Positions 598-48,885 of a stretch of DNA of 64,000 bases are shown here, piece after piece. The position numbers were made by a program, and so were the translations under genes. Within the stretch, counting starts at the first letter, position 1; every line of letters begins with the position of its first letter. The notes under the pieces were generated by a model. That model made no database searches. It saw nothing but the letters and a program-made list of their open reading frames with translations, and was not told where the DNA came from. Source of the stretch: Isurus oxyrinchus (Eukaryota); assembly GCA_026770705.1 (NCBI GenBank), contig JANJGN010000052.1:3906001-3970000 (forward strand). The letters are read 5' to 3'.

Positions 598-879
598 GTT
601 CCACAGTGATGGTTATGAACCCCTCCACTGCTCCATGTTCATTCTCTGCCACACACTGATAGTCTCCAGTGTCCCTGGATGTAACGTGAGGAATCACCAA
701 CCACAGCTCATTGTTGGAACTTGTTCTGTTCATTTGGACATTAAGATGTCGCCACGTCAGGTTAGAAGCTGGGAAGCTCTCGACAGAGCAGATTATCACT
801 GCAGAATTCCCCTCAATTATGTTGATCGATGAAGCGTTAATCATATCAAGAGAATTAATTGAGAGATTCTGTGGTGCAT
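598..879 (-). CDS. Siglec-like gene A: Ig domain 3 exon (C2/I-set stalk); gene continues beyond the left end
   Basis: ttttag|ATGCACC acceptor and GAAC|gtgagt donor; 282 nt, phase 1-1; encodes ..VIICSVESFPASNLTW..DTGDYQCVAENEHG.. Confidence 0.92.
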
Positions 880-1009
880 CTAAAAACAAATAAACATCAA
901 TTAACTTAAACTGACTGTGAAGCACTTTGAAATACACTGAGAATGTGAAAGGTTTGATATCAATGCAGGTTCTTTCACCACAAAGCCCGTAATCCAGGCA
1001 GACAAATCA

Positions 1010-1557: not shown

Positions 1558-1854
1558 CTTGCACAGTTAGTACGAGGGTCCGCTCCGATGAAACAGATGG
1601 ATATCTCACTCTGCAGCTGAGAGTGTGTCCGTGGTGTTTGAGTGATGGGATCAGGGTCAGAACAGAAGTATAGGTCAGAGTGACACCATGCTGAGTTACA
1701 GTGTTTGAGACTGATCCAGGTACGTCAGTGGGAGTGTCCCTGGTTAAGACAGGTGCTGCTGTTCCATTGCACGTTGTGTTGAAGGTGCAGCTTACATCCA
1801 CACGCTTTCCTGCAATAATTTCAGCAGGGAATATCGTGGGTTTATCTGTGAAAT
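1558..1854 (-). CDS. Siglec-like gene A: C2-set domain 2 exon
   Basis: tgttag| acceptor, CAAG|gtaagt donor; 297 nt; SCTFNTTCNG (includes the Siglec interdomain Cys)..HHGHTLSCRV; the core Trp is Arg here (LTRDT). Confidence 0.9.
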
Positions 1855-2225: not shown

Positions 2226-2591
2226 CAGAAACGTGAAGCTGGGTTACAGGATAGTAGCTATATCTATTCCTGCTGTCAAATTCTATTCTGAAATAATAAG
2301 GTCCTGCATCTTCCCGTCTGATGTTGTTTATAATCAGGGAACAGTCGCCATCTTTCAGGTCTCCAGACAGCCGGGTCCGATGGCGGAACCGTGGTAACTC
2401 ATGATTGTGATCCTTGGAGTGAAAGGCTATAGACGATCTTCCCCGTTCCTCATTATTAAACCAGACTCCACCTCGTTGTTGGTTTTCCAAATTTGAAGGA
2501 TAACTGTAATGACACGGAATCTGTACACACGAACCTTTCTGTGCTGTCATCTCTCGTGGAGTGTCACCTTTCCACTCTTGTGACCATCCAA
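2226..2591 (-). CDS. Siglec-like gene A: V-set sialic-acid-binding domain exon
   Basis: ccccag| and TCTG|gtaagt; 366 nt; GSCVQIPC, GDCSL (Siglec B-E intrasheet Cys pattern), DAGPYYFRIE with the essential Arg. Confidence 0.95.
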
Positions 2592-4444
2592 CTGGGGAGA
2601 GAAATATCAATATTTAATTCTGGACGGTTTGTAGTTCCATTAGACTTGATATCCACTCCCTCCATCATTGGGGCACAGTGGCTGCAGTGTGGACCATCTA
2701 CAGGACACACAAGGAACTCCCCAAGGTTTCACAATGGTTGGAAGAGAATCCTGGACACAGGAGTGGACAAGTTCATTCTACATTGGCTCATGGTCCTCAG
2801 GACCCTGTTTAGTTTTTTCGAATTATTCATTCATGGGATTTATTACCCATCCCATGTCCAGCAGAGGCATTTAAGAGTCAACCACATTGCTTTGGGTTTG
2901 GAGTGACATGTAGGCCAGACTGGGTAAGGGTGGCAGATTTCCTTCCCTATAGGTGATCAGTGAACCAGGCTTTTTAATTCCATTCATCAGCTGTGATGGG
3001 ATTCACACCCAGGGCCCCAGAGCATCACCCGGGGCCTCTGGAATACTAGCCCAGTGACAATACCTCTCTGCTACCGCTTCCCCTTAGTGAAGCCAGTCTT
3101 CCACTCAGAACCCCCCCCATTATCACCGTCATGAATCACTAATTAGCCTAACATTCCTGTCTGCTCTTCAACACAGCTGATTGGCTAATCTGATTCAATC
3201 TGATTGGTGTTCATTCCCTCTTCAATGTTTAAGGAATCACCAATCACTCATCCTCTAGTTATTCTCCTGCCCACAAGAGGGAACATTCTCTGTCTACCCA
3301 GTCAATCAAAACCTTTCATCTAAACCTAGTGGTGCTTGAGTATATAGTCGGGAATCCAGGGCAATGGAGCCTCAGGAGAAGAGATGGAAACCCTGTGAGG
3401 TGGAACGTCACTGAGGCCATCCGAGTTGAAGCGACTTTTGGAGAGAATTCCAAGGCAAGATCTTCGAAGTTGAAGATTGGAATCCCTCATGAGAGAAACA
3501 GAGTTTCAGTGAGATTGGTTGACTGACAGTGTTCACTGATGTCCGGGTGGGTTGTTGTGAAATCCATGGGCTCTATCTTGGTCGCGTTTACAATTTAATG
3601 AGTAATGTGGCTGTGAGACCACAGTTTGCCTGTTAATTCACATGAGCTCATATTAATCCAGAATGTTAGGGTATAAGGTGGATATTGTGAATTATTTTAT
3701 CTTTCTGAGCTGGTGCAGTAAAGTTTATTTTTGTTTGTTTAAAAGCCATGGAATCTTGTAGCTCTATTCTCTTTGCAAGCGTCTTAAATCTCAAACCTCG
3801 TCTACTTGAAACAAAATATTATTGGTTCCTAACTGTAAATTACGAAAAAAATTGGGTGCCTGTTCCTCCATCAGCAACTCTTTAACCCTTTTATCCCTCC
3901 AAGTAATAAGATTTTGTAAATGTATTCATTCATGGGATGTGGGCATCGCTGCCAAGGCCAGCATTTGCTGCCCATCTCTAATGTCCCGTGACATAATCTC
4001 TGTAGCAGAGTAGAGACAATCATGATCACTCAGGATATTTGACATCTATCCACATGAGCAGCTTTACCTTCCTTCTCTCTTTCAGTTATCTTACTCCCTT
4101 ATTGAAGTTTCTAGCATGGTGAGAACTGGATGGTTTGCTCGGACATTTCAGAGGAACCACGTTGCTATGAGTCTGGAGTCACATGTAGGCCAGACCAGAT
4201 ATAGACGGCAGATTTCCTTCCCTAAAGGCCATTAGTGAACCAGATGGGTGTGTATGACAATCGATGATAGTTTCATGGTCTCCATTACTGAGACTAACTC
4301 CCATTAGTGTAAACAGAGTGAACAGTTTTCCATTGATCCCACCTTTCCCGTTCTCTCCGGTATTTTACACACTATTGCTCGATAATTTGATTCTGCCAAG
4401 GACCCCTTGGAAAATCATGGACCCCAGTTAGACAACCAATGGAA

Positions 4445-4535
4445 TAAGGAGTCTCTTTGGATTCTCATTGTCTAAGGAATCTCTTTGGATCCTCATTGTC
4501 GAAGGAATCTCTTTGGATCCTCATTGTCTAATGGA
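4445..4535. repeat. About 3 copies of a 28-bp tandem repeat (ctctttggatcctcattgtctaaggaat)
   Basis: Direct inspection. Confidence 0.8.
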
Positions 4536-5722
4536 TTATTTCTGATCCAAACCCCATATTGTTGTATTGTTGATTCCGATGCAGCATTGTAGACTGACTT
4601 GTCCCCAAGCTCAGCACTGACCCTACTCCAGCAGACACTGTGAAACACACTAACAAAGTGCCTCTAGCCTGAGCTCTGCATGTGTCGGAGTTGCCGTTGT
4701 GGTGGGTTCATGACTTTCAAAGATGCTGTTGTCATTTTTTTTGTTCAAACTGAACTGGGCCCCACATGAAGTGTTGATACCAGAAACCTCTTGTTCCCTG
4801 TCCTTCTGAAACATCTGTGATTCAACAGGATTCTGAAGATTTGCTGATAAGGGTCTTAAATTGTCTGATTGTTGATTGATACAACACAGGAGGAGCTCAT
4901 GTGACCCATCGTGCATGTGCTGACTCTTTCCCAATTCCTCTCCAAAACCTTTCGCACATTCCTGCAAATTTCCCTTCAAGTATTTATCCAGTTCCCCTTC
5001 TGAAAGTTCCTGTTGAATCTGCTTCCACCGCTCTTTCAGGCAGTGAGGCAATGGTCTCTCTCTGAGCTGCAAAGTGCCCAGATTCCGTGAAATTTAAACT
5101 ATGCAGCAGATCAGAGACACTCATCAGATAACTCAGAATATTTGACACCTTTACACCCAGTCAGCTTTGCCTTTCTTCTCTCTTTCAGTTATCTTGCTCT
5201 CTTATTGAAGTATCTAGCAAGGTGAGAATGGACAGGAAGTGTGACACTGAACAACCTGTCTATTCTAGGAGCTGCTGTGTTGTCTTCATGGGAAGTTTTG
5301 AATAAAGGCAGCAAAGGACACAAATTTCAGGTCATTGCTATCGGAGACCTAACATTAGGATAGGCTTCATCCCCCAGTTTTTATCCCTGCTTCTCTACTC
5401 AACACATCAATCCCCATCGCTCACTGACCAACGTCCGACAGCACCTGAATTTCAAGATTCTGCTCTAGCTGCTACAAACCTGCCTATCCCTGTAAACTCC
5501 TCCAGCCCCTACAACCCTTCAAGACCACTGGTCTACTCCAATTCTGCTGTCAGACAGGGAGTCAGTGTATATCAGTGAGCACAGGGGTGATGGGTGAATG
5601 GGACTTGGTGTGAGTTTGTACACTGGATCACTGCTGAATCAGTTCCCTATCAGAGCTCAATAAGAATGATCTTTAACAAAGACTATTAACCATAAATCTG
5701 TCCGAGCTGACAATGGTATTAC

Positions 5723-5762
5723 CTTGCAGAAGTGACAGGAGGAAGTAAGATTTCCCGATCAT
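5723..5762 (-). CDS. Siglec-like gene A: leader (signal peptide) coding part, MIGKSYFLLSLLQ(V)
   Basis: ATG at 5762, CAAG|gtaata donor, phase 1, joins the V exon in frame; exon acceptor ctttcag| at 5804; same peptide in gene B. Confidence 0.88.
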
Positions 5763-6194
5763 TGTCCACTCCCAGATATTTCCTCAGCTTCTAACTCTGA
5801 AGTTCTGAAAGAGAAAGGAGTTAATGAGACTTCACCTCTTGTCCGACAGCTCTTGAGAGATCAGAACTGCTTTTAGACAATATCTTCACAGACTAATTTG
5901 ATTCTCTGTGGGATGATAGGTGCTCTACAGAGAGTTACAAGGCTTTCAGAAAGAAAAACAATGAAGGTCTTGCATTTCTATAGCACCTTTCACCACCTTG
6001 GATGTCCCCAAGCTCATGTCCCTTGAGCTAGAAAGATGTTCTGTACAACAGACTTGAGCCTCACACCCAGATCTCAATAATCAGTAGAAATCTTTCAAAG
6101 GCATCGATCATTGGAATCTGTCTTTATAAAGTCACAACATCAACAAAGGACGGTGTTGGTGGTGGAAGTGAATTCCAATCGTTCCGCTACTTAC

Positions 6195-6340
6195 CCAGGA
6201 CCTGTCCGACTGCTCGCCTGGGGAGGAACTGCCCACACGCTCTGCTTGGGCTGAATGACCTCTTCCTGTGCTGATCCATCTGTGTATTAAATTAGAAAAG
6301 GCTGATGCGTCACTGTGAGCCAAAATGAGGAAGTTGGAAC
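6195..6340 (-). promoter_or_regulatory. Gene A putative promoter and non-coding first exon
   Basis: CCTGG|gtaagt donor after 6195; AT-rich TATA-like stretch ~6286-6296; PU.1/ETS-like AAAATGAGGAAGT at 6322-6334; conserved in gene B. Confidence 0.55.
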
Positions 6341-6389
6341 AAAGTGAGAGAACAGCACTTTGCTGTGCACTGTCAGCAAACCCTGTGTC

Positions 6390-9345
6390 TGTATAAGAAT
6401 ATAAGAACAGAACAAGTAGGATCAGCTGGACACCCTGACATTTTCATTCCTTGTATTCCATCCACTCATTTTTTTATCTACTCACTGAAACTATTTATCT
6501 CCCTCTGCAGCCTCTTTGTGCCCTCCTCACAGCTTGCTTTCCTGCCCAGCTTATATATTTCCTACCTATCTTCACCATACAGTCAGAAAATCTGCCTACA
6601 GTACAGTCAGTCCCTTCATCCAAGTCACTAATGTAGATTGTGAATAGTTGAGGCCTCAGCACTGATCCCTGTGGCTCTCCACTAGTTACAGTTTACCAAG
6701 CTGAAAATCACCCATTTATCCTGGCTCTCTGTTTCCTGTCAGTTAGCCAGTGCTCTATCCATATTAATATATCACCCCCAACACCATCCAATTTCACCCT
6801 GTGCAGTATCCTTTGATGTGGCACCTTATCGAATGCCTTTTGGAAATCCAATGTCATGAAGAGATATTTGTGTGTAAAATGTGCTTGGAAATTATTATTT
6901 AAAATAGAATTCTAGTGGTGGTCCATGTATAGGTGTGAGTCTGGGTGTGTCTTAATTGGATTAAAGCCAGCTGGTCTGTGTGCTTTGATGTTTAGTAGTT
7001 TTGAGATGTTAATTAGGTGAATTGTGAGGAGAACAGTAAAGTGTTCATTTGCAATTGTTGAATAAACCATTCCAGACTGGGGGTAAAATCTTGCACCTAG
7101 TTAGAAGGAGCCAAAAGATGTGTTTTTTCTTGAACTTACTAATGAAATTGGTGCTATGAAAGGGGGTTTTATTGTTCGACGAGCTGGAGTTCAGAAGTCC
7201 GAGTGATACAATGGAAAATTTACATTCAAAGGGAAAGCTAGTTATATAAAGGAAGGAGTTTGTGTGTGTGAGGCAGGAGCATTTCAGACCTAACCAGCCT
7301 GTAGCCTCCAACCAACTTGCAAAGGAACCTCATTCGGAATTCGTAATGTCAAATGTGCTTTGCCTGGTGTCTATATTATGTCAATGGTTCATTGTTGCCT
7401 TAGTAGAGATTTTCATGGGGGTGATTAATTGGGGGATTTGTTAAAAAGTTATTATAGTAGTTATTTGTAGCCAATGTGTATGTGTTAAATTAATAAATGG
7501 TTTATTTAGTTTTATATAAAAAACCCACAATCCTCGGTGGTCTTATTCCTACTGAATTCAAAGTCTTCATCTCAAAATTACAAACAGCAAAATTGGGTTA
7601 TGACAGTTGTTTCAATTTTCCCTCTGGGATTTGAACAACTCAGCCTTTACCCTTGGCTGTGTCATAGTCCCTAATACACCACATCTACAGGTTCCACTTT
7701 ATCCAATCCACTTGTTACATCCTCGAGGAAATCTAATTATTTTTTCAAACATGATATCCCTTTCACAAACCCATGTTGACTCTGTCTGATTGAATTATGG
7801 TTTTCTAAATGTCCTGCTGCTCCCTCCTTCATAATGAATTCTGGTATTTTCCCAATGACAGATATTAGACTAACTGACCTGTAGTTTCTTGCTTTCTGCC
7901 TCCTCCCTTTATTGAACAGAAATGTTTCATTTATGTTTTTCCAATCCGCTGGGACCTTCCCATAATCTAAGGAATTCTGGAAGATTACAACCAATGCATC
8001 CACCGTCTCTGCAGCCATTTCCTTTCAGACCCTCACATTCAGGCCGTCTGCTCCATGGGACTTGTCAGCATTTGTCTCATTAGTTTTCTTAATACTTTTT
8101 CTCTGGTGATAGTGATTGTTTTATGTTCCTCCCTCCTTGTTGCACCGTGACTTTCTCCTGCTATTGGGATGGTTTTAGAGATTTTTACTGTGAAGACAGA
8201 CACAAAATTCTTGTTGAAAGTCTCTGTCATTTCCTTGTTTCCCATTATTAATTCCCCAGTCTGATTTTCTATGTGTCCCATTATTACTGGAGCTTCTCTC
8301 TTATTTTAATGTACAACATCTCACTGTCATTGTTTATGGTTCTTGCTAGTTTACTCTCATATCATCATTTCTGCCTCCTTATATTTCTCCCCTCACTTTT
8401 CTGGTTTCTCAAATATTCCCAATCTCCAGCCTATCACTAAGCATCCCAACATTGCCGGCTTTATCTCACAATTGGATACCGTCCTTAGCTTCCTGAGTTA
8501 GCCGCCAATGCTCCATCCTTTTTATAGATTCTTTCTTTCTTACTGGAAAATATCTTCATTGGCATTTATGAAACATCTCTTTAGACACCTGTTACTCCTC
8601 ATCTACACACCCCCCCCCCTTTAACCTGCTGTCCCACTCTACTTGGGCCGACTCTACTTTTAACCCTTGTAATTGCCTTTAGTTAAGTTTATGACACTAG
8701 CTTCAGACACAAGTTTCCAAATTGAATATTAAATTTCAACACCGTATGATTACTCTTCCCTTGAGGATCCTTTACAATGAGATGTTAATTAGTCTTGTCT
8801 CATTAAACATTGCCAGGACTAAAACAGCCTCTACCCTGGTTGGTTCCATGTTGCATTGTTCTAAAATACTGTCCTGAATACAATCTGTATAACCTCGCTG
8901 AAAGCTACATTTGCTAATCTGATTTGTCTAATCCATATGACGATTGAAAACTCCCATGATTAATGTGGTGCCTTTCTCACAGACCTCCTCATGTATTGAT
9001 TTATAATCTACCCCTGCAGTGTAACTACTGTCAGGGGGGAGTATAAACCAACCCACCAGTGATTTCTTTCCCTTGCAATTCCTTATGTTCACCCAAACTG
9101 ACTGTGCATCTTGACATCTGAGCCAAAATCATTTCTCACTACTTTACAGGTCTCATCTTTTATTAAGAGAGCTACCCCACCTCCTTTTCATTTTTCCTAT
9201 CCTTTCAAAGATTCCAAATATTCTTCAATTTTCAATTTCCAACCTTGGTCACCTTGCAACCAACTCTCTGCAGTGTCCATCTTATCGTACCCATTAATCT
9301 CTATTTGTGCTATAACTTCATTCATTTTGTTCCAACTTTATGTTT
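6390..9345 (-). mobile_element. Degenerate CR1-clade LINE (ORF2 endonuclease/RT fragments), interrupted by an LTR-like insert
   Basis: ORF pieces DALVVIFQNSLDYGKVPADWK..NYRSVSLISVIGK..SQHGFVKG; CR1-type short-repeat tail near 6395. Confidence 0.85.
6852..7667 (+). mobile_element. Solo LTR-like element
   Basis: TGTCATGA..GTGTCATA termini; splits the CR1 phrase ggaaatccaa/aatacaccacatc; similar to 11286-12043. Confidence 0.7.
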
Positions 9346-10482
9346 TATATATTCATTCTTCCATGGGAAGTGGGCATCACTGGCTAGGCCAGCATTTATG
9401 GCCCATCCTTAATTACCTTGAGAAGGTGGTGGTGAGCTGCCTTCCTGAACCTCTGCACTCCATGTGGTGTAGGTACACCCACAATGCTGTTAGAGAAGGA
9501 AGTCCAAGATTTTGACCCTAGTGGCAGTGAAGGAATGGCGATATATTTCAAAATCAGGATGATGTGTGGCTTGGAGGCGAACTTCCAGGTGGTGGTGTCT
9601 GGGCATTTCAATCCCTTGTGACAATAAATGTAATATTATAGAAAATGCAAAGGCTTCTTGTAATCTATCACAGAATAAACAAGTTGCAGAATTCAGAAAG
9701 CACTTTCTGAAATGTCAACAAAGTTCAGTGACGTCACATTTCTGCTAATTACTATTCGGCCATGTTGGCTGCTTGCAGTCAGGCAGTCCCTCGGTTGTGA
9801 TGTGTCCACACAGCAGTACTGGGATGCATCAGCATCAAAGGACATGCTTAGTTGTTGCCGTGCAATGCATTTATTGCGAGGCTGTTGCACACACGCCCTG
9901 TCGATGGACCCTCTGAATTACCATTCTGAATCGAGGCAGATCAACTTTCCTGCAACAACTTGCATTTATATGGCACACTTAATGTAACAAACTGTCCCAA
10001 ATCTCTTCAGGGGATTGTTACCTACATATAAATCCATCTCTGAGACACATAATGAGGTATTAGGGACAGGTGACAAAAAGCTGATTTCACAAAGCCAGTT
10101 AATNNNNNNNNNNNNNNNNNNNNNNNNNNNNNNNNNNNNNNNNNNNNNNNNNNNNNNNNNNNNNNNNNNNNNNNNNNNNNNNNNNNNNNNNNNNNNNNNN
10201 NNNNNNNNNNNNNNNNNNNNNNNNNNNNNNNNNNNNNNNNNNNNNNNNNNNNNNNNNNNNNNNNNNNNNNNNNNNNNNNNNNNACTGAATCTCTGTCCCC
10301 AATGACTCAGCATCAAGTCGTCACTGGGGAAACATTTCATTCCAAACCACACCAACCACAGACCCATTCAGTCCCTTCCTCCCTCTCTCCCCCTCTCCCC
10401 CAGTGGGTTGTCTCATGTTCCCAAGAATCTTCATCCCTGCCACCATCCACAAACCTCCTGACCCCCTCTCCCTTTTTCACGC

Positions 10483-10731
10483 TCAGTTTCTCTTGAATCT
10501 GATCTGTGCGTATTCCGTCTGCTCTTCCCTGTGGACAGACCCATCACCACTGGGCACCCTGAAGACTTGGGGATTGGTGTAGAGAAGGTCGTTGGGATTG
10601 TCGGGGTTCCCATGTCCAGCATCGCCTCCCACTGGACCTTCAGAGAGACCCCGGGGAGCTGGGGTCTCCCCCTCACTAGTTGTATCTCTGGTTGTGTTCC
10701 GGGGCTCAGTAATCAGCACGTTCTGTTTACC
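10483..10731 (-). pseudogene. Orphan Siglec terminal cytoplasmic exon (LLYTNP degenerate ITIM; TEYAQI ITSM-like)
   Basis: ctgtag| acceptor, 249 nt, open to stop; paralog of 53453-53701; no TM exon found upstream. Confidence 0.85.
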
Positions 10732-10874
10732 CTACAGAGAAACGGAAACAGAAGGCATCCTCACATCATTTACTGGCACTGATAGGGTTAAATTATTCTG
10801 CAGCCTCGTTAGTATCAGTCGTGGGTCAGTGGGTTTAACCCTCTCTCACATGTTTTATGAAAGAAAACACCTAT

Positions 10875-11155
10875 GGCAGTGCAGTGCTCCCTCAGTACTG
10901 ACCCTTCGATAGTGCAGCACTTCCTCAATGCTGACCATCCAACAGTGCAGCACTCCCTCAGTACTGACCCTCCGACAGTGCAGCGCTCCCTCAGTACTGA
11001 CCCTCCAACAGTGCAGCGCTCCCTCAGTACTGACCCTCCGACAGTACAGGTCTTCCTCAGTACTGACCCTCTGACAGTGCAGCACTCCCTCAGTACTGAC
11101 CCTCTGACAGTGCAGCACTCCCTCAGTACTGACCCTCTGTCAGTCTCGCACTCCC
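10875..11155. repeat. 33-bp SINE-derived minisatellite
   Basis: Tandem units. Confidence 0.9.
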
Positions 11156-11285
11156 TCGGTAAGGCTCTGGCGAGTGTCGGCTTGGATTCTGCACTCAGGT
11201 GCCTGGTTTGAGGCTCAATAACATGAATCTTGTAATCAGAGAGAGGATGAGAGAGAGAGAGAGAGATGAAGGGTCAGAGACAGAG

Positions 11286-12043
11286 CGTTATGAATCTATT
11301 AATGTATGTATTGTAATTGGAAATTGTCTTTTTAAACAGAGGTTTAGTCTGTGGGTGTGTGTGTGTGTGTTTTAATTGGATTAAAGCCAGCCGGTCTGGG
11401 GACTTTGATGTATAGTAGTTTTGAGATGTAAACAAAGAGGTAAAGAGGCATATTGCATTTTTAAAAGGAGGATTCAAAGCCTGGGAGTGAATTCTTAAAC
11501 CAATCAATGTTGATATTACTAATAAAATTGATACTATGAAACGGGATTTATAGTTAGAAGAGATGGAGTTCAAAGGTCCTGATGATACAATGAGAATTTA
11601 CATTCAAAGAGAAGCACTGGGTATAACTTGAGCAGTTTTGTGTGTGCAGAGCAGAGGCTTGTAACATCAAAGCAGCTGTAAGCCTGCACATGTCTGCAAT
11701 GGAACCAAAGTGAAAGGAACCTCATTTGGAATTTGTGAGGTGAAAATGCTTCGCTTGGAATCTGCTTAAAGTCTATGGGTTGTCTTAGAGGACGTTAGTT
11801 TGGGAATTTGTTAAAAAGTTATGATAGTACTAGTTTGTAGCGATGTGCATATGATTAACTTGTGAAAATTAATAAATGTCTCATGTAGTTTGATATAAAA
11901 CCATCTCAAGAACTGGTGGTCTTATTCCTGAATTTAGAGCTGCATCTCAAACATTCCACTGGGAAATATAGGTTATGACAGTTGTTTAAAGTTTCCCTCT
12001 GGGATTTTAAACAACAGCCTTTACCAGTTGCTGTGTCATAACA
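11286..12043 (+). mobile_element. Solo LTR-like element
   Basis: (T>C)GTTATGA..TCATAACA inverted termini; internal AATAAA; same family as 6852-7667. Confidence 0.7.
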
Positions 12044-12178
12044 GAGAGACAGCATGATATTGAACCATTGCTGACTCCACAGGTACAAATCAGTGGGTAA
12101 CTGGGCAGGGAATCTGTGACATGTGTTGTCTACACACTGAGATTGAAGCTTTGGAGTGAGTGTAAACAGTTCCTGTAC

Positions 12179-12260
12179 CTGGTGTTTCACAGAGAGTGGA
12201 CTGGGGGTCAATGCAATGTCTCTGGTCCCTGAAACTCTCTCCTCCATCGCTGTCTTTCTC
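12179..12260 (-). pseudogene. Orphan juxtamembrane cytoplasmic exon (RKTAMEERVSGTRDIALTPSPLSVKHQ)
   Basis: ttgcag| and CAG|gtacag; 82 nt; paralog of 52264-52345. Confidence 0.85.
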
Positions 12261-12394
12261 CTGCAATAACACAATATTACACTGTGGTTATCATATAGCA
12301 GAGAGTCAGTGCAGCACAGACACAGAGCCCACTGTAATCTTAGACCAACGACTGGGACTGTCTCTTTAAATCAGTTCTATACAAAGCACAGAAT

Positions 12395-12860
12395 CAAGAA
12401 GCTTGACACCATCCAGGACAAAGCAGCCCGATTGATCTACACCCCATCCCCCACATTAAACATTCACTCCCTCCACAACGAACACACAGTGGAAGCAGTG
12501 TGTGTACCATCTACAAGATGCACTGCAGCAACTCAGCAGGGCTCCTTCAACAGCACCTTCCAAACCCACGACCTCTACCATCTAGAAGGACAAGGGCAGC
12601 AGACACATGGGAACACCACCACCTGGAAGTTCCCCTCCAAGTCACTCACCATCCTGACTTGGAAATATATCATCGTTCCTTCACTGTCACTGGGTCAAAA
12701 TCCCGGAACTCCCTCCCTAACAGCACTGTGGGTGTACCTACACCACATGGACTGCAGCGGGTCAAGAAGGCTGATCACCACCACCTTCTCAAGTGCAATT
12801 AGGGATGGGCATTAATGCTGGCTTCACCAGTGACAGCCACATTCGATGTAAGAATTAAAA
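12395..12860 (+). mobile_element. LINE 3' fragment
   Basis: KKLDTIQDKAARLI..; same 3' end as the 55.5-55.96 kb copy. Confidence 0.8.
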
Positions 12861-13433
12861 ATCTCACAGCTCAATGTATTTATTGGGATCCTCCTGCACA
12901 CACGCCCTGTCGAAGGAGCCTTTGTGGTTCCATTGTTAATCAAAGCAGATCAGACTTACTGCAACTACTTGCATTTATATAGCACCTTTAATGTAGCAAA
13001 ATGTCCCAAGGCTCATCCGGGAATTGTTAGTCACATCTTCACCTGACTCTGAGGCACATGAGGAGATATAAGGGACAGGAGACCAACAGCTGCGTCAACA
13101 AAGTCAGTTATTAACGGGCATCTTAAAGGAGGAGCTGGAGATAGAGAATGAGTGACAGACACAGAAAGAAAGACAGAGAGAGGGAGAGAGAGAACAAGAG
13201 AGCGAGAGAGAGAGAGAGAGAGACAGAGAGAGACAGTGAATCTCTATCCCCAGTGGCTCAGCATCCAGTCCTCTCTGGAGAAGCATTTCATTCCAAACCA
13301 CACCAACCGCAGCCCAATCCCATCCCTTCCTCCCTCTCTCCCCCTCTCCCCCAGTGGGTTGTTTCCCGTTCCCAGGAATCTCAATCACTACCCCCACCCC
13401 CATACCTCCTCACTCCCTCTCCCCATTTTTCAT

Positions 13434-13682
13434 TCAGTTATGCTCGAACCTGATCTGTGCGTATTCCGTCTCCTGATCCCTGTGGACAGACCCATCATCA
13501 CTGGACATCCTCAATACTTGGGGATTGGCGTAGAGAAGGTCGTTGGGATTGTCGATGTGCCAATGTCCAGCATCGCCTCCCAATGCACCTTCAGAGAGAC
13601 CCCGGGGAGCTGGGGTCTCCCCCTTACTAGTTGTGTCTCTGGTTGTGTTCCGGGGCTCAGTAATCAGCACGTTCTGTTTACC
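13434..13682 (-). pseudogene. Second orphan Siglec terminal cytoplasmic exon (LLYANP; TEYAQI)
   Basis: ctgtag| acceptor, 249 nt, open; upstream lies minisatellite, then the gene B promoter on the opposite strand. Confidence 0.85.
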
Positions 13683-13824
13683 CTACAGAGAAATGGAAAC
13701 AGAAGACATCCTCACATCAATTACTGGCACTGATAGGGTTAAATTATTGTGCAGCCTCGTTAGTGTCAGTCGTGTCTCAGTGGGTTTAACCCTCTCTCTC
13801 ATGTCATCTGAAAGAAACCACCTA

Positions 13825-14400
13825 TGGCAGTGCAGTGCTCCCTCAGTACTGACCCCCCCGACTGTGCAGAACATCCTCAATAGTGACCCTCTGTCAGTCT
13901 CGCACTCCCTCTGTACAGTGCAGCACTTCCTTAGCACTGACCCTCTGACAGTGCAGCACTCCCTCGGAACTGACCCTCCATCAGTGCAGCGCTCACTCAG
14001 TACTGACCCTCCAACAGTGCAGCACTCCCTTAGCACTGACCCTCTGACAGTGCAGCACTCACTCAGTACTGACCCTCCATCAGTGCAGCACTCCCTTAGC
14101 CCTGACCCTCTGACAGTGCAGCACTCCCTCACTACTGACCCTCCAACAATGCAGCACTGCCTTAGCACTGACCCTCTGACAGTGCAGCACTCACTCAGTA
14201 CTGACCCTCCAACAGTGCAGCACTCCCTTAGCCCTGACCCTCTGACAGTGCAGCACTTCCTTAGCACTGACCCTCTGATGGTGCAGTACTCCCACATTAC
14301 TGACCCTCTGACAGTGCAGCACTCACTCAGTACTGACCCCTCCAACATTGCAGCATTCCCTCTGCACTGACCCTCTGACAGTGCAGCACTCCCTCAGTAA
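13825..14400. repeat. 33-bp SINE-derived minisatellite
   Basis: About 16 tandem units. Confidence 0.9.
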
Positions 14401-14619
14401 TGATACCACAGATTGTCGACATGGACCATATGGCCAGAGACCTGTATTGGGAACTCTTATCGCCTGAGTTTCAGCCTCCGAGGTGAGGGGAAGGGGTTTA
14501 ATCCCACGGAGCCATTGGAGAAGCTTCATGACTACAGCTGCCCAAATATGAGCTGACAGATCATCACATGGTAAACGTTTTGCTGAGAGCACAAAACATC
14601 CTCAATCTTCTCACTGATT

Positions 14620-14763
14620 ACCCACTTCCACATTTTGTCTCACAGTGACACATCAACCCTTTCTAATTAAATACACAGAGGGAGCAGCACAGGAAGAGGT
14701 CATTCTGCCCAAGCAGAGCGGGTGGGCAGTTCCTCCCCAGGCAAGCAGTCGGACAGGTCCTGG
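14620..14763 (+). promoter_or_regulatory. Gene B putative promoter and non-coding first exon
   Basis: Inverted homolog of 6195-6340; CACTTCC ETS site, TAATTAAATA, CCTGG|gtaagt donor at 14764. Confidence 0.55.
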
Positions 14764-15213
14764 GTAAGTAACGGAACGATTGGAATTCACTTCCACCACC
14801 AACACTGTCCTTTGTTGATGTTGTGACTTTATAAAGACAGATTCCAATGATTGATGCCTTTGAAAGATTTCTACTGATTATTGAGATCTGGGTGTGAGGC
14901 TCAAGTCTGTTGTACAGAACATCTTTCTAGCTCAAGGGATGAGGGAAGAGCAGAGACATGAGCTTTGGGACATCTTGAGGTGGTGCAAGGTGCTATAGAA
15001 ATGCAAACCCTTCATTGTTTTTCTTTGTTAAAGTCTTGTGACTCTCTGCAGAGCACCTATCATCCCACAGATAATCAAATTAGTCTGAGAAAACATTGCC
15101 TAAAAGCAGTTCTGATCTCTCGAGAGCTGTCGGACAATAGGTGAGGTCTCATTATCTCCTTTCTCTTTCATAGCTTGAGAGTCAGAAGTGGATGGAATAT
15201 CTGGCAGTGGACA

Positions 15214-15253
15214 ATGATCGGGAAATCTTACTTCCTCCTGTCACTTCTCCAAG
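15214..15253 (+). CDS. Siglec-like gene B: leader coding part, MIGKSYFLLSLLQ
   Basis: ATG at 15214, CAAG|gtaata donor, phase 1. Confidence 0.88.
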
Positions 15254-16500
15254 GTAATATCATCGTCAGCTCAGACAGATTTATGGCTAATAGTCTTTGT
15301 AAAAGATCATTCTTATTGAGCTGTGATTGGGAACCGATTCAGCAGTGAGCCAGTGTACAACCTCACACCAAGTCCCATTCACCCATCACCCCTGTGCTCA
15401 CTGATATACACTGACTCCATGTCTGACAGCAGAATTGGAGGAGAATAGAGATCTCAGAGGGTTGTAAGAACTGGAGGAGGTTACAGAGATAGGGAGGGGA
15501 GAGGGTGGATTGCGGGTAAGAAATCAATGATGAGAATTTGAAATTTGAGTCATTGCTGGACTGGGAGCCAATGTAGGTCAGTGAGTGACAGGGGAGCGAT
15601 CGGCTGAATAGAGAAACAGGGATAAAAACTGGGGAATGAGGTCTATCCTGATGCTAGGACTCGGATAACAATGCCCTGAAATTTTGTGTCATTTGCTGAT
15701 TTTAGTCAGAATTTCCCATGAAGACAACACAGCAGCTCCTAGAATAGACAGGCTGTTCAGTGTCACACTTCCTGTCCATTCTCACCATGCTAGATACTTC
15801 AATAAGGGAGCAAGATAACTGAAAGAGAGAAGGAAGGTAAAGCTGTCTGTGTGTAAAACTGTCAAATATTCTGAGTTATCATGAGTGTCTCTGACCTGCT
15901 GCAGAGTTTAAATTTCACAGAATCTGAGCACTTTGCAGCTCAGAGAGAGACCATTGACTCACTGCCTGAAAGGGCGGTGGAAGCAGATTCAACAGGAACT
16001 TTCAGAAGGGGAACTGGATAAATACTTGAAGGGGACATTTTGCAGGGCTGTGGAGGAGAGAGCAGAGGTTAGAGTGGGACTTATTGGACAGAACTTTCAA
16101 AGGCCCAGCACAGGCTCGATGGGCCAAATGGCTTCCTTCTCTTCCAGATCATTCTGCAATCTGATAAATTAAGCCCCACATCAATAACTCTTAAGGCTCC
16201 TGCTGCAGGGATGGATCTTTGAGAAGGACAGAGAATAAGAGGTTTCTGGTATCATTTTCATATTGTACTGAATCTTGCTGCCAGAATGTTTGGTCACCGC
16301 TGATCACCATGTTGTGTTTTTATAATGATATAAAGGCACCAGCCACTGATACGGAATTGGGTAAATACATTGTGGGTTCAGTTATTTTGAATAGGGACAT
16401 GAGAACAGATGTACAAGGATAGAAAGCTGGGAGACACCTGCAGCCAAACTGTGTGAGCTGTGTTCTGCTCACAGACAAAAGTGAAACTTGGACTGGATGG

Positions 16501-18900
16501 TGTTATCATCCCAGCTGATGTTACTACTGGGCAAGTCAGATCCCAGGGTGGAACTCAGCTTGATAGGTCCTAACTTATATTTTTTATTTAGGAATGTGGA
16601 GTGCGGCTACTAAACAGAGTCACAGGAGTCATCTGATGAACTTCTAACAAAAGAATAAAACATTTATTAAACTAGGAAAGACAAACTATATGACATTACT
16701 CCTTCACCCAGACCTATACATTTACAGTTTCATAAGGATAACACAATTACAATAACTAACTTATACTCTCATGTTCACACTAAGTACACAGTCGATGTAA
16801 AACAGTAGACGACCTGGGGTCAGGGACACCACATTCTGAAACCAAGTGACAGAACCCACTTGGAACAAATGCTCCGGGTCCCTCCTCAACTGACTCTAGA
16901 CGCTTGTTACACCGTGAGGCAACTGGTCTAACGAAACTGCTTCTTTCATATGAGGGTTTCCAATCTCTACTCACCAAGTGCTCTCTTTGGAATCTTCTCC
17001 AACATGACACTTTCACTCAGACACCTTCCACAAGGGTCCACTTTCACTATTTCAAACTCTCCTTCCCATGTTCCTGCCCCCTGGATCGCCACGTGCATTC
17101 AGCCTTCCTTCCACGCCCTGTCTCTCCAATGCTCAGCCGTGTCAATGGAACACCATGGCTTCACTTGGCCGTAGTAATGAGTCACCAACCTGTGGTGTCT
17201 CCTAGGATCTTCTGGCTTCTCACAAGCCTTTTTTGCTTTGGGTCTGTGTCCTTTTGCCCATTCTCTTTTAGCTTGGATCCCTCCTCTGAACCTCAACCTT
17301 AACTTGACTTAACAGGACCTTGTCCAGATTCCTGATCTTCCTTGGACTAGAGGGTCTTCTTGGCCCTTTCTCCTGTTCCACTCGATAGTTTTGGCTTCTT
17401 CTTTACTTTGGGACTGACTATCTGTCCCGCTCCTTTGCTGCTTCTCCTGGCAACTCCTTTCAACAGAACTGAAAGTACTTTTCTGTTTTTCTCTGTCTCT
17501 GTGGGACCTTCCCTCTGGATCACTGTTGCCAGGCAACAGCACAGTTTCTTACACATTGTATTTGTTTTGACTTTCCTTCAACAGTCACCAAACCTCATTA
17601 GATTTCTGGCTTCTATAAAAATGAAACTAAAAGTCAAGTTTCCCCCTTTCTTAACACACAAATACAGAAATCAAACTAAACTTGAACTTAAAGATAGACC
17701 TTATGCCTAACACACACAAATACACATAGAACTTACTTAACCTATCCCCAGTTCCTAAAAATCACATGACACACTTCCCCTCGAGTGATGTCATGCTGCT
17801 GTCCCTGAAAGGCATATTACAGCAGTGTTATCACTTGGCAGGTGATGTGTGCCAGGCAGACCAAGTCCATGAGAGAAAGGTGGTCACACGATCATAATGA
17901 TTTTGCAATTTGTATTTATTATGAGATGTGTGCACTGAATTCAGAAGCAATAATTACTCTAGGAACTTTAGAGATTTGAAAATTAAATTAAAATACTTGC
18001 TCTCAGAAGAAATGATATCATGCATGTACATGACACTACAATTACCATTTTAATAATAATTCTTAAAATTCCGAAATAACCTGACTCCCAGTTACACTCC
18101 CTTTAAGGCAACGGTCCAAAAATAGAGTTTATATTTAAAACAAACTCAGCAAGTTAACACAATATAAAAGCAATACCCTGCACAGAGGAATTCCAAGTGG
18201 CTTTTCCCCAACTTCAGTTCTGTTGGATAGCAGGCTTGTGCACAAATGCTAGTGGTTTCATTAAGACTATATCACACACTCGTGTTAGATCTTACATGGC
18301 ATTCTGACACATAGCCTTTCATTCTCCCTGATAGATATATATTTCTCTCTTTGTAACATGAAAATTCTATTGTTCCAAATGTTTTTGAAACTGTATCTTC
18401 CTCATAACAAATTCTTTTGTGGTGCCCATATTGCCAAGAGCCTTTGAGAAAAATAAGCACATTCCTTAGTCTTGCTTATCTGGCTATTTGTAAACAAACT
18501 AAGATTCCTTTGAAATCCAACAACCCCTTCATTGAAATAAAAATGCAAATTCTCTTCATACCTTCCATGCTAAGCAGCATCCATGTTTACTCAATAGCAT
18601 GTCAAGCACCTAGCTCCTTTTGATCATTTTAAACTTCCAATCTAATTAACTCCAAATGTACTTAAATCACATGCAGACCCATCATGCGTACCCCCATAAA
18701 CCTACTTCACAATATACTATAAAATTTTATGAAAATTATTATACTTTCATCACAATAGGAACCACTGCCTTAGACACTGAGGATCTAGGACAGCTAGGCC
18801 AATTCATGATTCATGATGGTGATAATGGGGGAATTCTGAAGGCTCCTAATCCATTGTCCTAGTTTGTAAATCAGCAGTGAACTCACTTCAATTAGTGTGT
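16501..18900 (-). mobile_element. Two adjacent LTR-like repeats in the leader-V intron of gene B
   Basis: TGTTA/TGTCATG starts at ~16501 and ~17789; the second resembles the reverse complement of the other LTR-like elements; absent from the gene A intron. Confidence 0.5.
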
Positions 18901-19145
18901 CTTGTAGACACTGTGTTGGGTGGAAGACTGGCTTCACTAAGCAGGTTCCTGAGGGCCACGAGCCAATGTAGAATGAACTTGTCCACTCCTGTATCCAGGA
19001 TTCTCTTCAATGTGTTGTGAAACATTGGGGCATTCATTGTGAGTCCAGACTGCAGCCACTGTGCCCCAGTGATGGAGGGGGTGGATTTTGAGTCTAGTGG
19101 ATTGACAAAACATTCAGAGTTAAATATTGATATTTCTCCCCCTAG

Positions 19146-19511
19146 CTGGACTACCACAAGTGTGGAAAGGTGACACTCCAGGAGAGGTGACAGCGCAGGA
19201 AGGTTCGTGTGTACAGATTCCGTGTCATTACAGCTACCCATCATATTTAGTACCGAGATCACCTGTTGGAATCTGGTATATGAGAAGGAATTGGGAAACA
19301 TGGTCTATAGCCTTTCACTCCAAGGATCACAGTCGCGAGTTACCACGGTTCCACCATCGGACCCGGCTTTCTGGAGACCTGAAAGATGGTGACTGTTCCC
19401 TGATTATAAACAACATCAGACGGGAAGATGCAGGATATTATTTATTCAGAACAGATTTTGACAGCAGGAATAGATACAACGACCGTCCTGAAACCCAGCT
19501 TCATGTTTCTG
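19146..19511 (+). CDS. Siglec-like gene B: V-set exon V1
   Basis: ccctag| and TCTG|gtaagt; 366 nt; SCVQIPC, GDCSL, DAGYYLFRTD with the essential Arg. Confidence 0.93.
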
Positions 19512-20384
19512 GTAAGTGCTGTGTTATAATTACTCAACAATTCACATCCAACACTCAATGGGAAATAATAGTGTTTGATTTGCTTGTTTTTTGGCCGTGT
19601 TAACCAGCGTCACTATTTTTAATGATTTGTCTATTTCTGCTCCCAGATCCATGAGCTTATTGTGTGTGATTGAATCCACATCATAGCTGTAACGTAAACC
19701 GAGCTGAGGGGTGATGACACCTCCCCCCTGAGTGAAGTGTCTCCTCCCCACTACACCTTCCACCCCTCACACTGTCTGTGTAATCTCCCGTCCCATCCCC
19801 AGCCTCTCTTTCCCCTCCAAAGTCCTGCAACGTGTTTCCATCTCCCGAATCCGTTCCCATCTTTCCCGGAACTCCATGTTTGAATCCCTTCAATCAGGTT
19901 CCCACCCCAGCCACTGTGCTGAAACAGCTCTTATTTTTATTGAGCCAATGCCAAGCCCCGATACCGAGCGAGAGCCTCCTCATTTGCTGAGTTTAAGGTG
20001 ATGAGTCAGCCCCTTAGTCCGTAGAGGGGATTCTCCTCGGTAATGTGCAGCCTTGTTTGTGTCTCTCCACAAGTGCATGAGGGGTTTGTACAGAGGCTGC
20101 AGCGCTGGAGGGGGTCTGCACAGGGGTCCTGGCCTGTCCTGAGCCAGTTTTAGCAAGGACAACTCTGGCCTTGGCAGCTGAAAGCCAGCCATTGGACAGA
20201 CGGGGCCTGTCACAAGGAGCCTGTTAGTCCCTCCCCCCCGTGTCTCCTGTGCTCAGATCCAGACCATGTTGGCTGGTGGATCTGGCTCAGGAAGGGTCCT
20301 CCCCATGGGACCCCCAGATGGAAGGTGGGTCGAGCGGGTCAGTCACTTGCATGTTTATTCTGCAGCTTTAATATTTTAGGAAGG

Positions 20385-21120
20385 TAAGAATGTAGGAACA
20401 TAAGAAATAGGGACAGGAGCAGGCCATTCGGTCCCTCCAGCCTGCTCTCACTGATCTGGTTGCGGCCTTAACTCCATTTTCCTGCTTGTCCCCCAAACCC
20501 TTGACTCCCTTGTCGATCAAAAACCTGCCTCACTCAGCCTTGAGTCTATTCAATGGCCCAGCCTCCACTGCTCTCTGGGGAAGAGAATTCCACAGGCTAG
20601 CGCCCCTCTGAGAGAGGAAATTCCTCCTCATCTCAGTCTTAAATGGGAGAGCCCTCATTCCGAAACTGTGCTCCCTGGTTCTAGATTCCCCCACGAGGGG
20701 GAAACATCCTCCCAGCATCCACCCTGTCAAGCCCCCTCGGAATCGGATATGTTTCAATAAGGTCACCCCTCATTCTTCTAAACTCCAATGGATACAGGCC
20801 CAACCTGCTCAACATTTCCTCACAGGACAAACCCTTTAATCCTAGGAATCAGCCCAGTGAAGCTTCTCTGAACTGCCTGTACACAATGATCCTGTTACAA
20901 TCTCACTAACACCCTGTGCAGCTGTTGCAAAACTTCCCTCCTTTTATACTCCATCCCTTTGCAATAAAGGCCAACATTCCACTTGCCTTCCTCATTCCGT
21001 GGTGTTCCTGAATGCTGACTTTCTGTGATTCATGTACCAGGACACCCAGATCCCTCTGTACTGCATTCTGCAGCCTGTCTCCATTTAAATTATATCCTGT
21101 TTTTCTATTCTTCCTGACAA
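20385..21120 (-). mobile_element. CR1-clade LINE 3' fragment
   Basis: QRDLGVLVHESQKVS.., FKTEMRRNFLSQR..LWNSLPQRAVEA; CR1-type tail. Confidence 0.85.
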
Positions 21121-21241
21121 TATAATTTGTTGCCATTCTCCTCAGTATTGACCATCCCCCCAATTCAGCCTCATCTGTAAATATTGGGTTCAGTGGATCC
21201 ACAAACCATCCAGAGATAAATATTGAGATTTCTCTCCCCAG

Positions 21242-21607
21242 CTGAACCCTCGCAAGAGTGGAAAGGTGACAATCCACGAGAGGTGACAGTGCAGGAAGGT
21301 TCGTGTGTACAGATTCCATGTCATTACAGTTATCCATCGTGTCTGGAAAACCAACCGCGAGGTGGAGTCTGGTTTAATAATGAGGAATGGAGAACATCGT
21401 CTATAGCCTTTCACTCCAAGGATCACAGTCACGAGTTACCACGGTTCCACCATTGCACCTGGCTGTCTGGAGACCTGAAAGATGGCGACTGTTCCCTGAT
21501 TATAAACAACATCAGACGGGAAGATGCGGGTCCTTGTTTTTTCAGAATAGAATTTGACAATGGTCCGAGGCATAACTATTACCCTGTAACCCAGCTTCAC
21601 ATTTCTG
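21242..21607 (+). CDS. Siglec-like gene B: second V-set exon V2 (open frame, possibly impaired)
   Basis: ccccag| and TCTG|gtaagt; 366 nt; Arg kept (FFRIE); three extra Cys, one replacing the tyrosine-corner Tyr (DAGPC). Confidence 0.85.
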
Positions 21608-22335: not shown

Positions 22336-22632
22336 ATTTCACAGATAAACCCACGATATTCCCTGCTGAAATTATTGCAGGAAAGCCTGTGGATGTAAGC
22401 TGCACCTTCAACACAACGTGCAATGGAACAGCAGCACCTGTCTTAACCTGGGACACTCCCACTGACGTACCTGGATCAGTCTCAAACACTGTAACTCAGC
22501 ATGATGTCACTCTGACCTATACTTCTGTTCTGACCCTGATCCCATCACTCAAACACCACGGACACACTCTCAGCTGCAGAGTGAGATATCCATCTGTTTC
22601 ATCGGAGCGGACCCTCGTACTAACTGTGCAAG
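22336..22632 (+). CDS. Siglec-like gene B: C2-set exon
   Basis: tgttag| and CAAG|gtaagt; 297 nt; almost identical to the gene A C2 exon, Trp intact (LTWDT). Confidence 0.93.
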
Positions 22633-22954: not shown

Positions 22955-23108
22955 TGACATCTGAATATCACAATGAACAGAACAAGTTCCAACAATGAGC
23001 TGTGGTTGGTGATTCCTCACGTTACATCCAGGGACACTGGAGACTATCAGTGTGCTCAGAGAATGAACATGGAGCAGTGGAGGGGTTCATAACCATCACT
23101 GTGGAACG
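22955..23108 (+). pseudogene. Gene B: disrupted Ig3 exon (3' half only)
   Basis: 5' half and acceptor replaced by unrelated sequence; begins TGA; 1-nt deletion (tgtgctcagag vs tgtgtggcagag); donor gttagt. Confidence 0.88.
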
Positions 23109-24221: not shown

Positions 24222-24361
24222 ACAGTGGAGGAGAGATTCTGCACGTGATCCTGATCCTGGGAATACGAGCTGTGATATTCCTTGTGGCTGTGGTTATCAC
24301 TATCACTGGAGTCTGTGTCTGGGAGAGACAAACAGTGAAAGGAAGTCGACAGACTGTTTGA
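24222..24361 (+). CDS. Gene B: terminal exon, activating-type TM with Arg and a short tail (DSGGEILHVILILGIRAVIFLVAVVITITGVCVWERQTVKGSRQTV*)
   Basis: ctctag| acceptor, phase 1, in frame with C2; hydrophobic helix with one Arg; no Tyr motifs; TGA at 24359-24361. This frame is not in the ORF track. Confidence 0.85.
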
Positions 24362-35130: not shown

Positions 35131-35145
35131 TTAGGTAGGGTTGTT

Positions 35146-46798: not shown

Positions 46799-47501
46799 AT
46801 GTGTAGGCACATACATGCACATTTACACACAGTCATACACATGCAAAAACCTACACAGAAACATACACACACTCAACTCACACACACACACTCACACGTG
46901 CACACACATACACATACACATGTACACACATTCATTTATGCACAGAAATATACACAAAGACACACGCACATTTGCGCAAACACATACACACATGCACACA
47001 CAGACACATGCATGCATACTCACACAAACATACTCACATATGTAGAAACACAAACACATACACATAAACACGCGTGAGGTCCCTCTTCTCTCTCAGGGCT
47101 GCACTGGAGTCTCGGTGTCAGCTCCGATTCTGTGTTGAAGGAAGGTAAACTCCAGATCAGCAAGACCCTGAATTGGATGAGCAACCTCCTGAACAGAGAA
47201 TTGTAGATTTACCCCTCAGTGCTCCATCAATCAAATACAATTCATTCCCGTAAATCCCTTGGCAAAATCCTGAGGATGTGAAAGTTTCTTTCATTCTAGG
47301 TGAACAGCACATCTACTGGTGGGAGAATGTAACTCCAGTTTGACTGTTTACATAGGCAGTGCCCATTATAAATTTGACAGTGGAAGTTATATGGAGGGAA
47401 GGTATCTGGAAATGTATACAGACATCAGATACAGAGAGATGATGCATGGAGTCTTGCTGTGCACTATGCTTGCTCACATTAAAATCTTTATTTATTTTTA
47501 G

Positions 47502-48818: not shown

Positions 48819-48844
48819 GTGAGTTACTGCAAACTCCAACATCA

Positions 48845-48885
<41 letters not shown>

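Follow-up and report, generated by a model that had tools for sequence, protein, structure and literature searches.

The closest described systems are the paired Siglecs of primates (Siglec-5/14 and Siglec-11/16), in which inhibitory and charged-anchor receptors are reported to have ectodomains made alike by repeated gene conversion (PMC5701461, PMC6288428, PMC13358205); there the converted tract takes in the binding exon, and its effect is that the two partners stay similar. Siglecs number 15 in humans; for bony fish the reported number is four, none of them CD33-related (PMC7226832). The CC′ loop has been linked to specificity in the CD33-related Siglecs (PMC10477811), and primate Siglec-12 (Siglec-XII), one receptor with two V-set domains, is described as an exception (PMC6829431). 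The shark family analysed here resembles the primate paired Siglecs in having conversion-type exchange together with inhibitory and charged-anchor forms, but it comprises hundreds of genes, the tracts are sometimes loop-sized, and the loops have remained old and distinct on otherwise young sequence. Like the mammalian CD33-related Siglecs, it evolves rapidly, has lost the essential Arg in some members and combines an Arg-bearing V-set domain with C2 domains and a tail carrying two tyrosine motifs; it differs in having hundreds of genes compared with the human total. Genes with tandem V exons form a regular class in the shark, reaching seven V exons per leader and having a position-specific Cys, unlike the exceptional Siglec-12. 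Fish NITR and chicken CHIR are likewise large clusters of paired receptors with divergent V domains, but they are not Siglecs.

The window (i.e. the whole stretch of DNA analysed, 64,000 nt) is from Isurus oxyrinchus (GCA_026770705.1, JANJGN010000052.1, positions 3,906,001-3,970,000, forward strand). It contains the V exon A of gene A and the V exons V1 and V2 of gene B (Table 1). The last two are consecutive exons within one gene, which was overlooked in the earlier note on this DNA. Gene A continues to the left of the window with its remaining C2b exons and a neutral transmembrane exon; ITIM exons were looked for downstream of the latter and none were found. V2 carries three rare changes, one of which converts Tyr to Cys within the DxGxY motif. 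The Arg-containing transmembrane exon is probably of the activating type, and the exon set with the tyrosine motifs has no leader or V exon of its own in between. We think it probable that A, V1 and V2 belong to a germline cluster containing hundreds of Siglec-like genes, where the two predicted ligand-binding loops come in a small number of old versions that recombination has reassorted among near-identical copies, likely as short gene-conversion tracts, and that this is likely to generate combinatorial inhibitory and activating receptors. The data show directly the copy number, the old loop versions, the recombination, the loop-sized patches between sister copies and the splicing of family members.

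Table 1. Features of the window, with positions numbered from its first nucleotide.
Feature	Position	Strand	Remarks
Gene A leader exon (MIGKSYFLLSLLQ, phase 1)	5723..5762	-	
Gene A sole V-set exon (A)	2226..2591	-	FNN-type window 1, SRN-type F-G, F-strand Arg, without BC-loop Cys
A window 1 (BC loop, C strand, CC′ loop)	2434..2493	-	
A F-G window, SRN version	2251..2280	-	
Gene A first C2 exon (C2a)	1558..1854	-	C-strand Trp replaced by Arg in the gene A copy
Gene A C2b exon no. 1 of 9	600..880	-	
Orphan tail exons	10481..13651	-	Two ITIM-type and one short cytoplasmic
Gene B leader exon	15214..15253	+	Sole leader upstream of V1 and V2
V1 (gene B)	19146..19511	+	First-of-tandem class; basic YMRR-type window 1 at 19244-19303
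V1 F-G window, SRN type	19457-19486	+	
V2 (gene B)	21242..21607	+	Internal class; FNN-type window 1 at 21340-21399
V2 position-specific BC-loop Cys codon	21340..21342	+	Predicted partner in a putative V1-V2 disulfide
V2 F-G window, NGP type	21553-21582	+	
Gene B C2a exon	22336..22632	+	BC-loop Cys aligns to the corresponding Cys in MAG domain 2
C2b exon, partial and broken	22956..23105	+	Bypassed by splicing in some run contigs
Transmembrane exon	24222..24361	+	Intramembrane Arg and short tail
Four C2b exons, neutral transmembrane exon and tail exons	47501..53702	+	Transmembrane exon at 51495-51591; tail with LLYANI and TEYAQI

The best matches of the V exons in the PDB are sialoadhesin (E = 1e-15) and MAG (E = 1e-13), followed by Siglec-5, Siglec-8 and CD33, and the Pfam domains V-set and Ig_CD22 are found in A, V1 and V2. 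All three have an F-strand Arg aligned to the FRFE motif of sialoadhesin. This is present in 180 of 208 unique intact exons, being absent from 25 of the 56 YM-type and 3 of the 151 FNN-type exons. Columns 21, 26 and 93 are Cys in 96-99% of V exons, so that the Siglec pattern is seen, with cysteines in the B and E strands, none in the F strand, and an extra Cys that we take to be linked to that of C2a in a V-C2 disulfide. On V-set homology, the Arg and the cysteine pattern, the V exons are Siglec-like; sialic acid binding is putative. As in CD33-related Siglecs there is a tail with LLYANI and TEYAQI (presumably an ITIM and an ITIM-like motif) and elsewhere a charged Arg anchor, but not a single V-set domain throughout, since gene B contains a pair of V exons and a different gene contains seven.

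The assembly contains at least 634 exact matches to the V motif, 257 exact leader matches, and transmembrane matches of which 217 have the Arg anchor and 188 are neutral; reversed patterns used as controls gave none. Broken V exons account for 37 of 304. The 302 loci reduce to 280 distinct 1.18-kb sequences, and copy number may be inflated by the assembly. Mis-joined repeats or uncollapsed haplotypes might create both the patchwork and the copy number, and identical 1.18-kb copies do recur while the cluster is scattered across many small contigs. Yet contig C52 by itself has 143 distinct exons in 176 sampled, gene models from other sharks show these loop versions and the tandem arrangement too, and several window-1 types are present in run contigs (i.e. 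contigs assembled from runs unmatched to the genome's individual). Moreover, patches of 15-45 nt between sister copies have near-identical flanks on both sides. Such chimerism is thus the most improbable of the explanations considered.

Synonymous divergence is 0.021 in the transmembrane exons, 0.025 in C2a and 0.051 in C2b. Within V it is 0.08 in the framework, 0.44 in window 1 and 0.77 in the F-G core. In the 208 distinct intact V exons analysed, a sample skewed toward A, V1 and V2, column entropy reaches 2.6 bits at columns 33-63 and 1.7 bits at columns 107-125, and is below 0.9 at columns 64-106. The sharp divergence of two windows noted earlier from three exons is therefore a property of the family, with entropy there well above that of the framework. 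Their assignment to BC-C-CC′ and F-G agrees with the sialoadhesin and MAG alignments, and with an AlphaFold prediction for P0012, a relative that naturally has tandem V domains (pLDDT 67.6, pTM 0.46), which provides strand boundaries and has structural matches to CD33, MAG and Siglec-10.

In the F-G core pS is 0.037 within versions and 0.998 between them (0.066 and 0.086 for the framework), so this loop is old and not a mutation hot spot. For the CC′ loop the within-version value is 0.081 compared with 0.055 for framework, only a slight excess. Local hypermutability was thus rejected as the source of the high loop dS. Of 16 other species groups, 8 have the xGP[S/R]H type of F-G and 9 have the PWAP type of CC′; judged from these sequences, the same loop versions occur in other shark orders. 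Either main F-G type is found with either main window-1 type, and single-V genes have several loop combinations.

Recombination among the V exons is strongly supported. The PHI test gives p<1e-4, and the conflict between segment trees is 602 lnL units, compared with 100±18 (maximum 159) in 40 single-tree simulations; simulation was used instead of AU tests, which are biased to each segment's own tree. Linkage between the windows (0.046) was not separable from a no-recombination null (mean 0.058, minimum 0.042). At two sister loci, 13 of the 25 differences in 1220 nt compared are concentrated in 44 nt at the F-G end. The same F-G-end swap is seen in a frameshifted sister pair, so not every swap requires selection. 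Both flanks are ≥0.95 in only 6 of 55 candidate patch pairs, and among these six two are a 9-nt slippage and two have one partner in common. The segmental exchange proposed in the earlier note is thus upheld across the family by the PHI test, tree conflict and sister-copy patches. Gene conversion and double crossover fit the loop swaps alike.

These data also bear on classical birth-and-death evolution, with strong selection on point mutations in the loops, convergence and no copy-to-copy exchange. It has in its favour that model M2a is better than M1a for each of the two windows, whereas neither the framework nor the N-terminus gives this result. But silent sites move together with the loop versions, the tree conflict is far above that of the simulations, and patch pairs are present; this explanation is already largely refuted, and we give it very little weight.

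For A, V1 and V2 themselves, the eight peptides previously quoted are all where they had been placed, SIAFHSKDH and LSGDLKDGDCSLIINNIRREDAG being the same in all three. The two C2a exons have the expected three differences (R/P, R/W and G/D), with 97.7% nucleotide identity across 443 nt. A near-invariant framework holds for the quoted peptides but not in the DNA, where each pair has 3-4.5 synonymous and 3-4.5 replacement differences over 43 codons. As described, the exon that A matches is V2 in window 1 but V1 in the F-G core, the latter match covering nine successive informative sites (alignment nt 346-357). A mosaicism test of the triplet alone gave p=0.04, uncorrected, too weak to be sole proof. 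A, V1 and V2 are of the single, first-of-tandem and internal positional classes respectively, which the earlier note also overlooked; this explains much of the pattern, and A need not be a recent V1/V2 hybrid.

Among V exons that follow another V exon, 96 of 101 have the BC-loop Cys, compared with 1 of 34 that follow a leader; for other elasmobranchs the corresponding counts, taken from gene models, are 34 of 46 and 4 of 105. Of the 29 V exons in three contiguous blocks, 17 stand alone and 10 form tandem pairs, and it is the tandem-V genes that account for the excess of V over leader matches (634 compared with 257). It might be argued that loop versions represent structural roles set by position, and that shuffling is mostly neutral, arising as a by-product of recombination among repeated genes and unselected for new specificities. 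The 92 intact V exons in internal position are without exception FNN type, 85 of them have NGP F-G and YM types are never internal. Column 33, among the top site-model columns, is the positional Cys. Swapping between frameshifted copies and the frequency of broken exons are consistent with neutrality, and dN/dS in the C2 exons (0.68-0.77) suggests weak constraint. Positional roles are at odds, however, with the several loop combinations of single-V genes, and neutrality with loop versions that last across shark orders in young surroundings. There is also a within-version excess of replacements, greater in window 2 than in framework (31 replacement and 5 silent variants in the NGP class, compared with 53 and 25). 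Overall we consider this account unlikely, though the strongest of the alternatives.

Evidence for positive selection on the loops is modest. Site models give omega of ~2.2 in the two windows (p=0.002 and 0.013), in accord with the diversifying selection suggested earlier, but mean pairwise dN/dS is 0.82 in window 1 and 0.66 in the F-G window, neither above 1, and segment-wide omega (1.22 and 1.33) does not significantly exceed it. The site tests used our own code and nucleotide trees on windows picked because they were variable, and recombination within a segment inflates their signal. Of the two outcomes that the earlier note had set against its interpretation, dN/dS ≤1 was found as a pairwise mean whereas absence of recombination was not; as a whole that interpretation is partly supported.

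The run contigs show leader-V, V-C2a and C2a-transmembrane joints. No V-to-V joint was present among those listed (15 of 340 joints, and 2 joints with 18 of 19 loose ends in a second set) in these contigs, which lose rare forms. Chicken immunoglobulin genes have patchwork V regions like those of the shark family, but there the conversion is somatic and AID-dependent. Hundreds of V exons with a shared framework and loop-sized patches do look like a donor library on which individual immune cells might draw for conversion, rearrangement or hypermutation, and V exons outnumber leaders. However, each V exon lies inside a complete gene and is equipped with splice sites of its own, and the surplus is accounted for by tandem-V genes. 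No RSS was found at V coding ends in 302 loci, 33 of 34 RSS-like matches being one poor intronic site ~90 nt beyond the donor, and rare germline changes had no WRC bias (2.38 compared with 2.48 per 1000). There is thus no sign of somatic diversification, which seems hardly credible here. The description 'CDR-like' was an overstatement, since the differences mostly separate a small number of old loop versions and a somatic mechanism was not seen.

Returning to germline reassortment of loop versions, frequent duplication and exchange would keep the C2, transmembrane and framework sequences young, while selection may maintain several loop versions and add moderate replacement change within them. 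Tandem V exons would encode multi-V ectodomains held together by a predicted V-V disulfide, and versions of the predicted binding loops probably differ in the ligands bound. More tentatively, and somewhat short of an even chance, this could be an undescribed inherited repertoire of shark glycan receptors: hundreds of activating and inhibitory Siglec-like genes with ancient loop cassettes, loop-sized conversion, disulfide-linked tandem V domains and a basic, often Arg-less outer domain reading ligands other than sialic acid.

Relatives in many sharks already carry names in automatic NCBI models. No description of a shark Siglec expansion was found in the literature searched (mainly the main texts of non-subscription papers; tables of genome papers may mention it), nor any prior account of Siglec conversion on the scale of hundreds of genes or of loop-sized swapping. 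The available text of the whale shark genome paper has one mention of Siglecs (PMC8455134).

Large, fast-evolving Siglec clusters have been regarded as mammalian, and the shark cluster bears on when paired glycan receptors originated. Natural pairs of domains differing in one loop version make the role of CC′ and F-G in glycan specificity testable. The cluster represents a germline route to receptor diversity, with a uniform scaffold and old loops, and through swapped loop versions the shark is likely to own a large inherited set of mix-and-match receptors.

The earlier note had described hypervariable loops in three V exons (A, V1 and V2), and all the peptides that it quoted are found in the window. 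A is the sole V exon of gene A on the minus strand, and in gene B on the plus strand one leader serves the consecutive exons V1 and V2. The C2 exons had been put about three residues apart; the two C2a exons (C2-type Ig exons) indeed differ at 3 residues. The solved structures best matching the V exons are sialoadhesin, MAG, Siglec-5, Siglec-8 and CD33. Judged from this alignment and from a predicted model of a relative, window 1 corresponds to the BC loop, the C strand and the CC′ loop, and the F-G region falls in window 2. All 104 protein matches are of shark or ray origin, the closest named proteins being automatic models from white and basking shark (identity up to 89-90%). Genes A and B possibly show signs of decay (i.e. 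rare changes in V2, substitution of Trp by Arg in the gene A C2a, and a search for gene A tail exons that found none).

Exact matches in the single assembly, which may include uncollapsed copies, number 634 for a 27-nt V framework motif, 257 for a leader motif, 217 for the Arg-containing transmembrane exon and 188 for the neutral one. Among 302 sampled loci there are 280 distinct 1.18-kb sequences, and a nearest neighbour on another contig is as close as one on the same contig. We analysed 304 of 312 V hits, the remaining 8 lying at segment edges. Intact V exons number 267/304, and 208 are distinct in DNA and 193 in protein, in a set that over-represents relatives of A, V1 and V2. Of the 29 V exons in three contiguous blocks of ~200 kb, 24 are intact; by arrangement, 17 are single, 10 lie in tandem pairs and 2 are unplaced.

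Column entropy across the family V exons peaks in windows 1 and 2, just where the variability had been placed. Exon length varies between 363 and 396 nt; the gaps fall in the CC′ loop, where 9-nt slippage accounts for part of the length variation. Silent sites vary together with the loops. The dS is 0.021 for the transmembrane exon, 0.025 for C2a and 0.051 for C2b, and within the V exon the framework is at 0.08, window 1 at 0.44 and the F-G core at 0.77. This high silent divergence arises because the loops are split into versions: pS is 0.998 between versions vs 0.037 within them in the F-G core, and 0.725 vs 0.081 in the CC′ loop. The loops are therefore a handful of old versions on a young surrounding frame. 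The same versions are present, in a comparison at the protein level, in gene models of other orders.

A mosaicism test on A, V1 and V2 alone gave p=0.04. Segmental exchange is well supported at the level of the family, in which both main window-1 types combine with both main F-G versions. The PHI test was significant (p<1e-4) both in a set of 71 representatives and in the full set of 208 distinct V exons. Separate segment trees gained 602 lnL units over one tree; in 40 simulations with segment-specific rates the gain averaged 100 and never exceeded 159. Linkage between windows 1 and 2 was no lower than in those simulations. In 6 of 55 candidate pairs the 400-nt flanks are near-identical on both sides. 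In one pair 44 nt at the F-G end hold 13 of the 25 differences over 1220 nt, and the tract of one partner recurs exactly in 5 copies that are otherwise different; a frameshifted pair has the same F-G swap. Patches of ~17 nt occur in the CC′ loop in pairs whose flanks match somewhat less. The patch pairs fit short gene-conversion tracts, although double crossover could have made them instead.

A BC-loop Cys is present in 96/101 intact V exons lying behind another V vs 1/34 behind a leader (a further 130 had no upstream feature in the retrieved DNA, and 2 follow other exons); in other elasmobranch models the counts are 34/46 vs 4/105. Its position is that of the C2a Cys aligning with MAG domain 2, which makes it the predicted acceptor of an inter-domain disulfide that would bond an internal V to the V in front. 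Internal V exons are of the FNN window-1 type in 92/92 cases and carry the NGP F-G version in 85/92, and YM types are absent from them. The mean net charge of YM-type window 1 is +4.2, and the essential Arg is lost in 25/56 YM-type exons. A (single), V1 (first of a tandem) and V2 (internal) each have a common combination for their class, and thus the patchwork seen in the three need not reflect a recent event among them.

The proposal of diversifying selection is borne out in part. Mean pairwise dN/dS is below 1 (0.82 in window 1, 0.66 in window 2 and 0.42 in the framework), and omega on segment trees (1.22 and 1.33 in the windows) is not significantly >1. M2a was favoured over M1a in both windows, with omega 2.25 at 27% of sites in window 1 (p=0.002) and omega 2.19 in window 2 (p=0.013). 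It was not favoured in the N-terminus or in the framework (p=0.12 for the latter). These are our own implementations, and within-segment recombination inflates the results. Replacement/silent variants are 31/5 in window 2 vs 53/25 in the framework for NGP, and 30/8 vs 34/22 for the SRN/SSN versions. Selection of moderate strength is likely to act on the loops, and 'CDR-like' holds only as a loose analogy. As to a somatic mechanism, no usable recombination signals were found at the V loci, and a WRC bias was looked for and was absent. Contigs from runs presumed to be RNA contain leader-V joints as well as V-C2a and C2a-transmembrane joints that have GT..AG ends, and they represent several window-1 types; at 80-85% likeness they are evidence for the family rather than for genes A and B themselves. 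No V-to-V joint was among the matches listed.

Other features are tabulated. One gene might splice either to the Arg anchor (a transmembrane exon with an intramembrane Arg) or to the inhibitory back end downstream of gene B, or this back end might be an orphan block. The divergent V-set-like frame may represent a separate gene of the Ig superfamily, or a remnant, within the cluster, and the C34 group is a possible anchor for synteny.

Features of the window and of contigs C52 and C34 of the assembly
Location	Strand	Feature
5723-15253		Genes A and B divergently oriented; orphan tail exons in between
4775-6349 / 14609-16254		Inverted 1.6-kb block upstream of genes A and B, 84% identical
39791-40156	-	V-set-like frame; Pfam V-set E 3e-4, under curated cut-off; ~30% identical to Siglec-like family
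47501-53702	+	Inhibitory back end made up of four C2b exons, a neutral anchor and a tail; own leader and V absent; 23 kb downstream of gene B Arg anchor
35124-36801; 1012-1438; 10870-11161; 13804-14406; 25091-25580; 44392-44791; 52559-53164		Minisatellite of ~37-nt period and many 33-nt-repeat arrays
44903-46748 and 61488-64000		Inverted duplication; identity reaches 98.5% over 747 nt
C52:1861976-1893647		One gene with seven tandem V exons, mostly 2.3-kb spacing, then C2a, C2b, Arg anchor; two leader copies upstream
C52:2921923-2951996		Layout similar to gene B plus downstream inhibitory back end
C52:3875626, C52:461878, C52:2950945 and others		LKGID-type V class, widely copied, mostly frameshifted or stopped; at least 3 intact
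C34:15138083-15189555		V exons (three) with three leaders, away from main cluster contigs (contig at least 15 Mb); one closely matched in white shark model P0070

For mammals, the available text of PMC5701461, PMC10477811, PMC6288428, PMC13358205 and PMC6829431 describes conversion between paired Siglecs, loss of Arg and control of specificity by the CC′ loop; that of PMC7226832 reports four Siglecs in bony fish, with CD33-related ones absent. Our literature searches, whose coverage mostly excluded subscription journals, found no description of a shark Siglec expansion or of loop-version shuffling. Sequence features class the family as Siglec, an assignment distinct from sialic-acid binding and from CD33-related orthology. 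The observation in the shark is real, and the family exceeds what the earlier note described.
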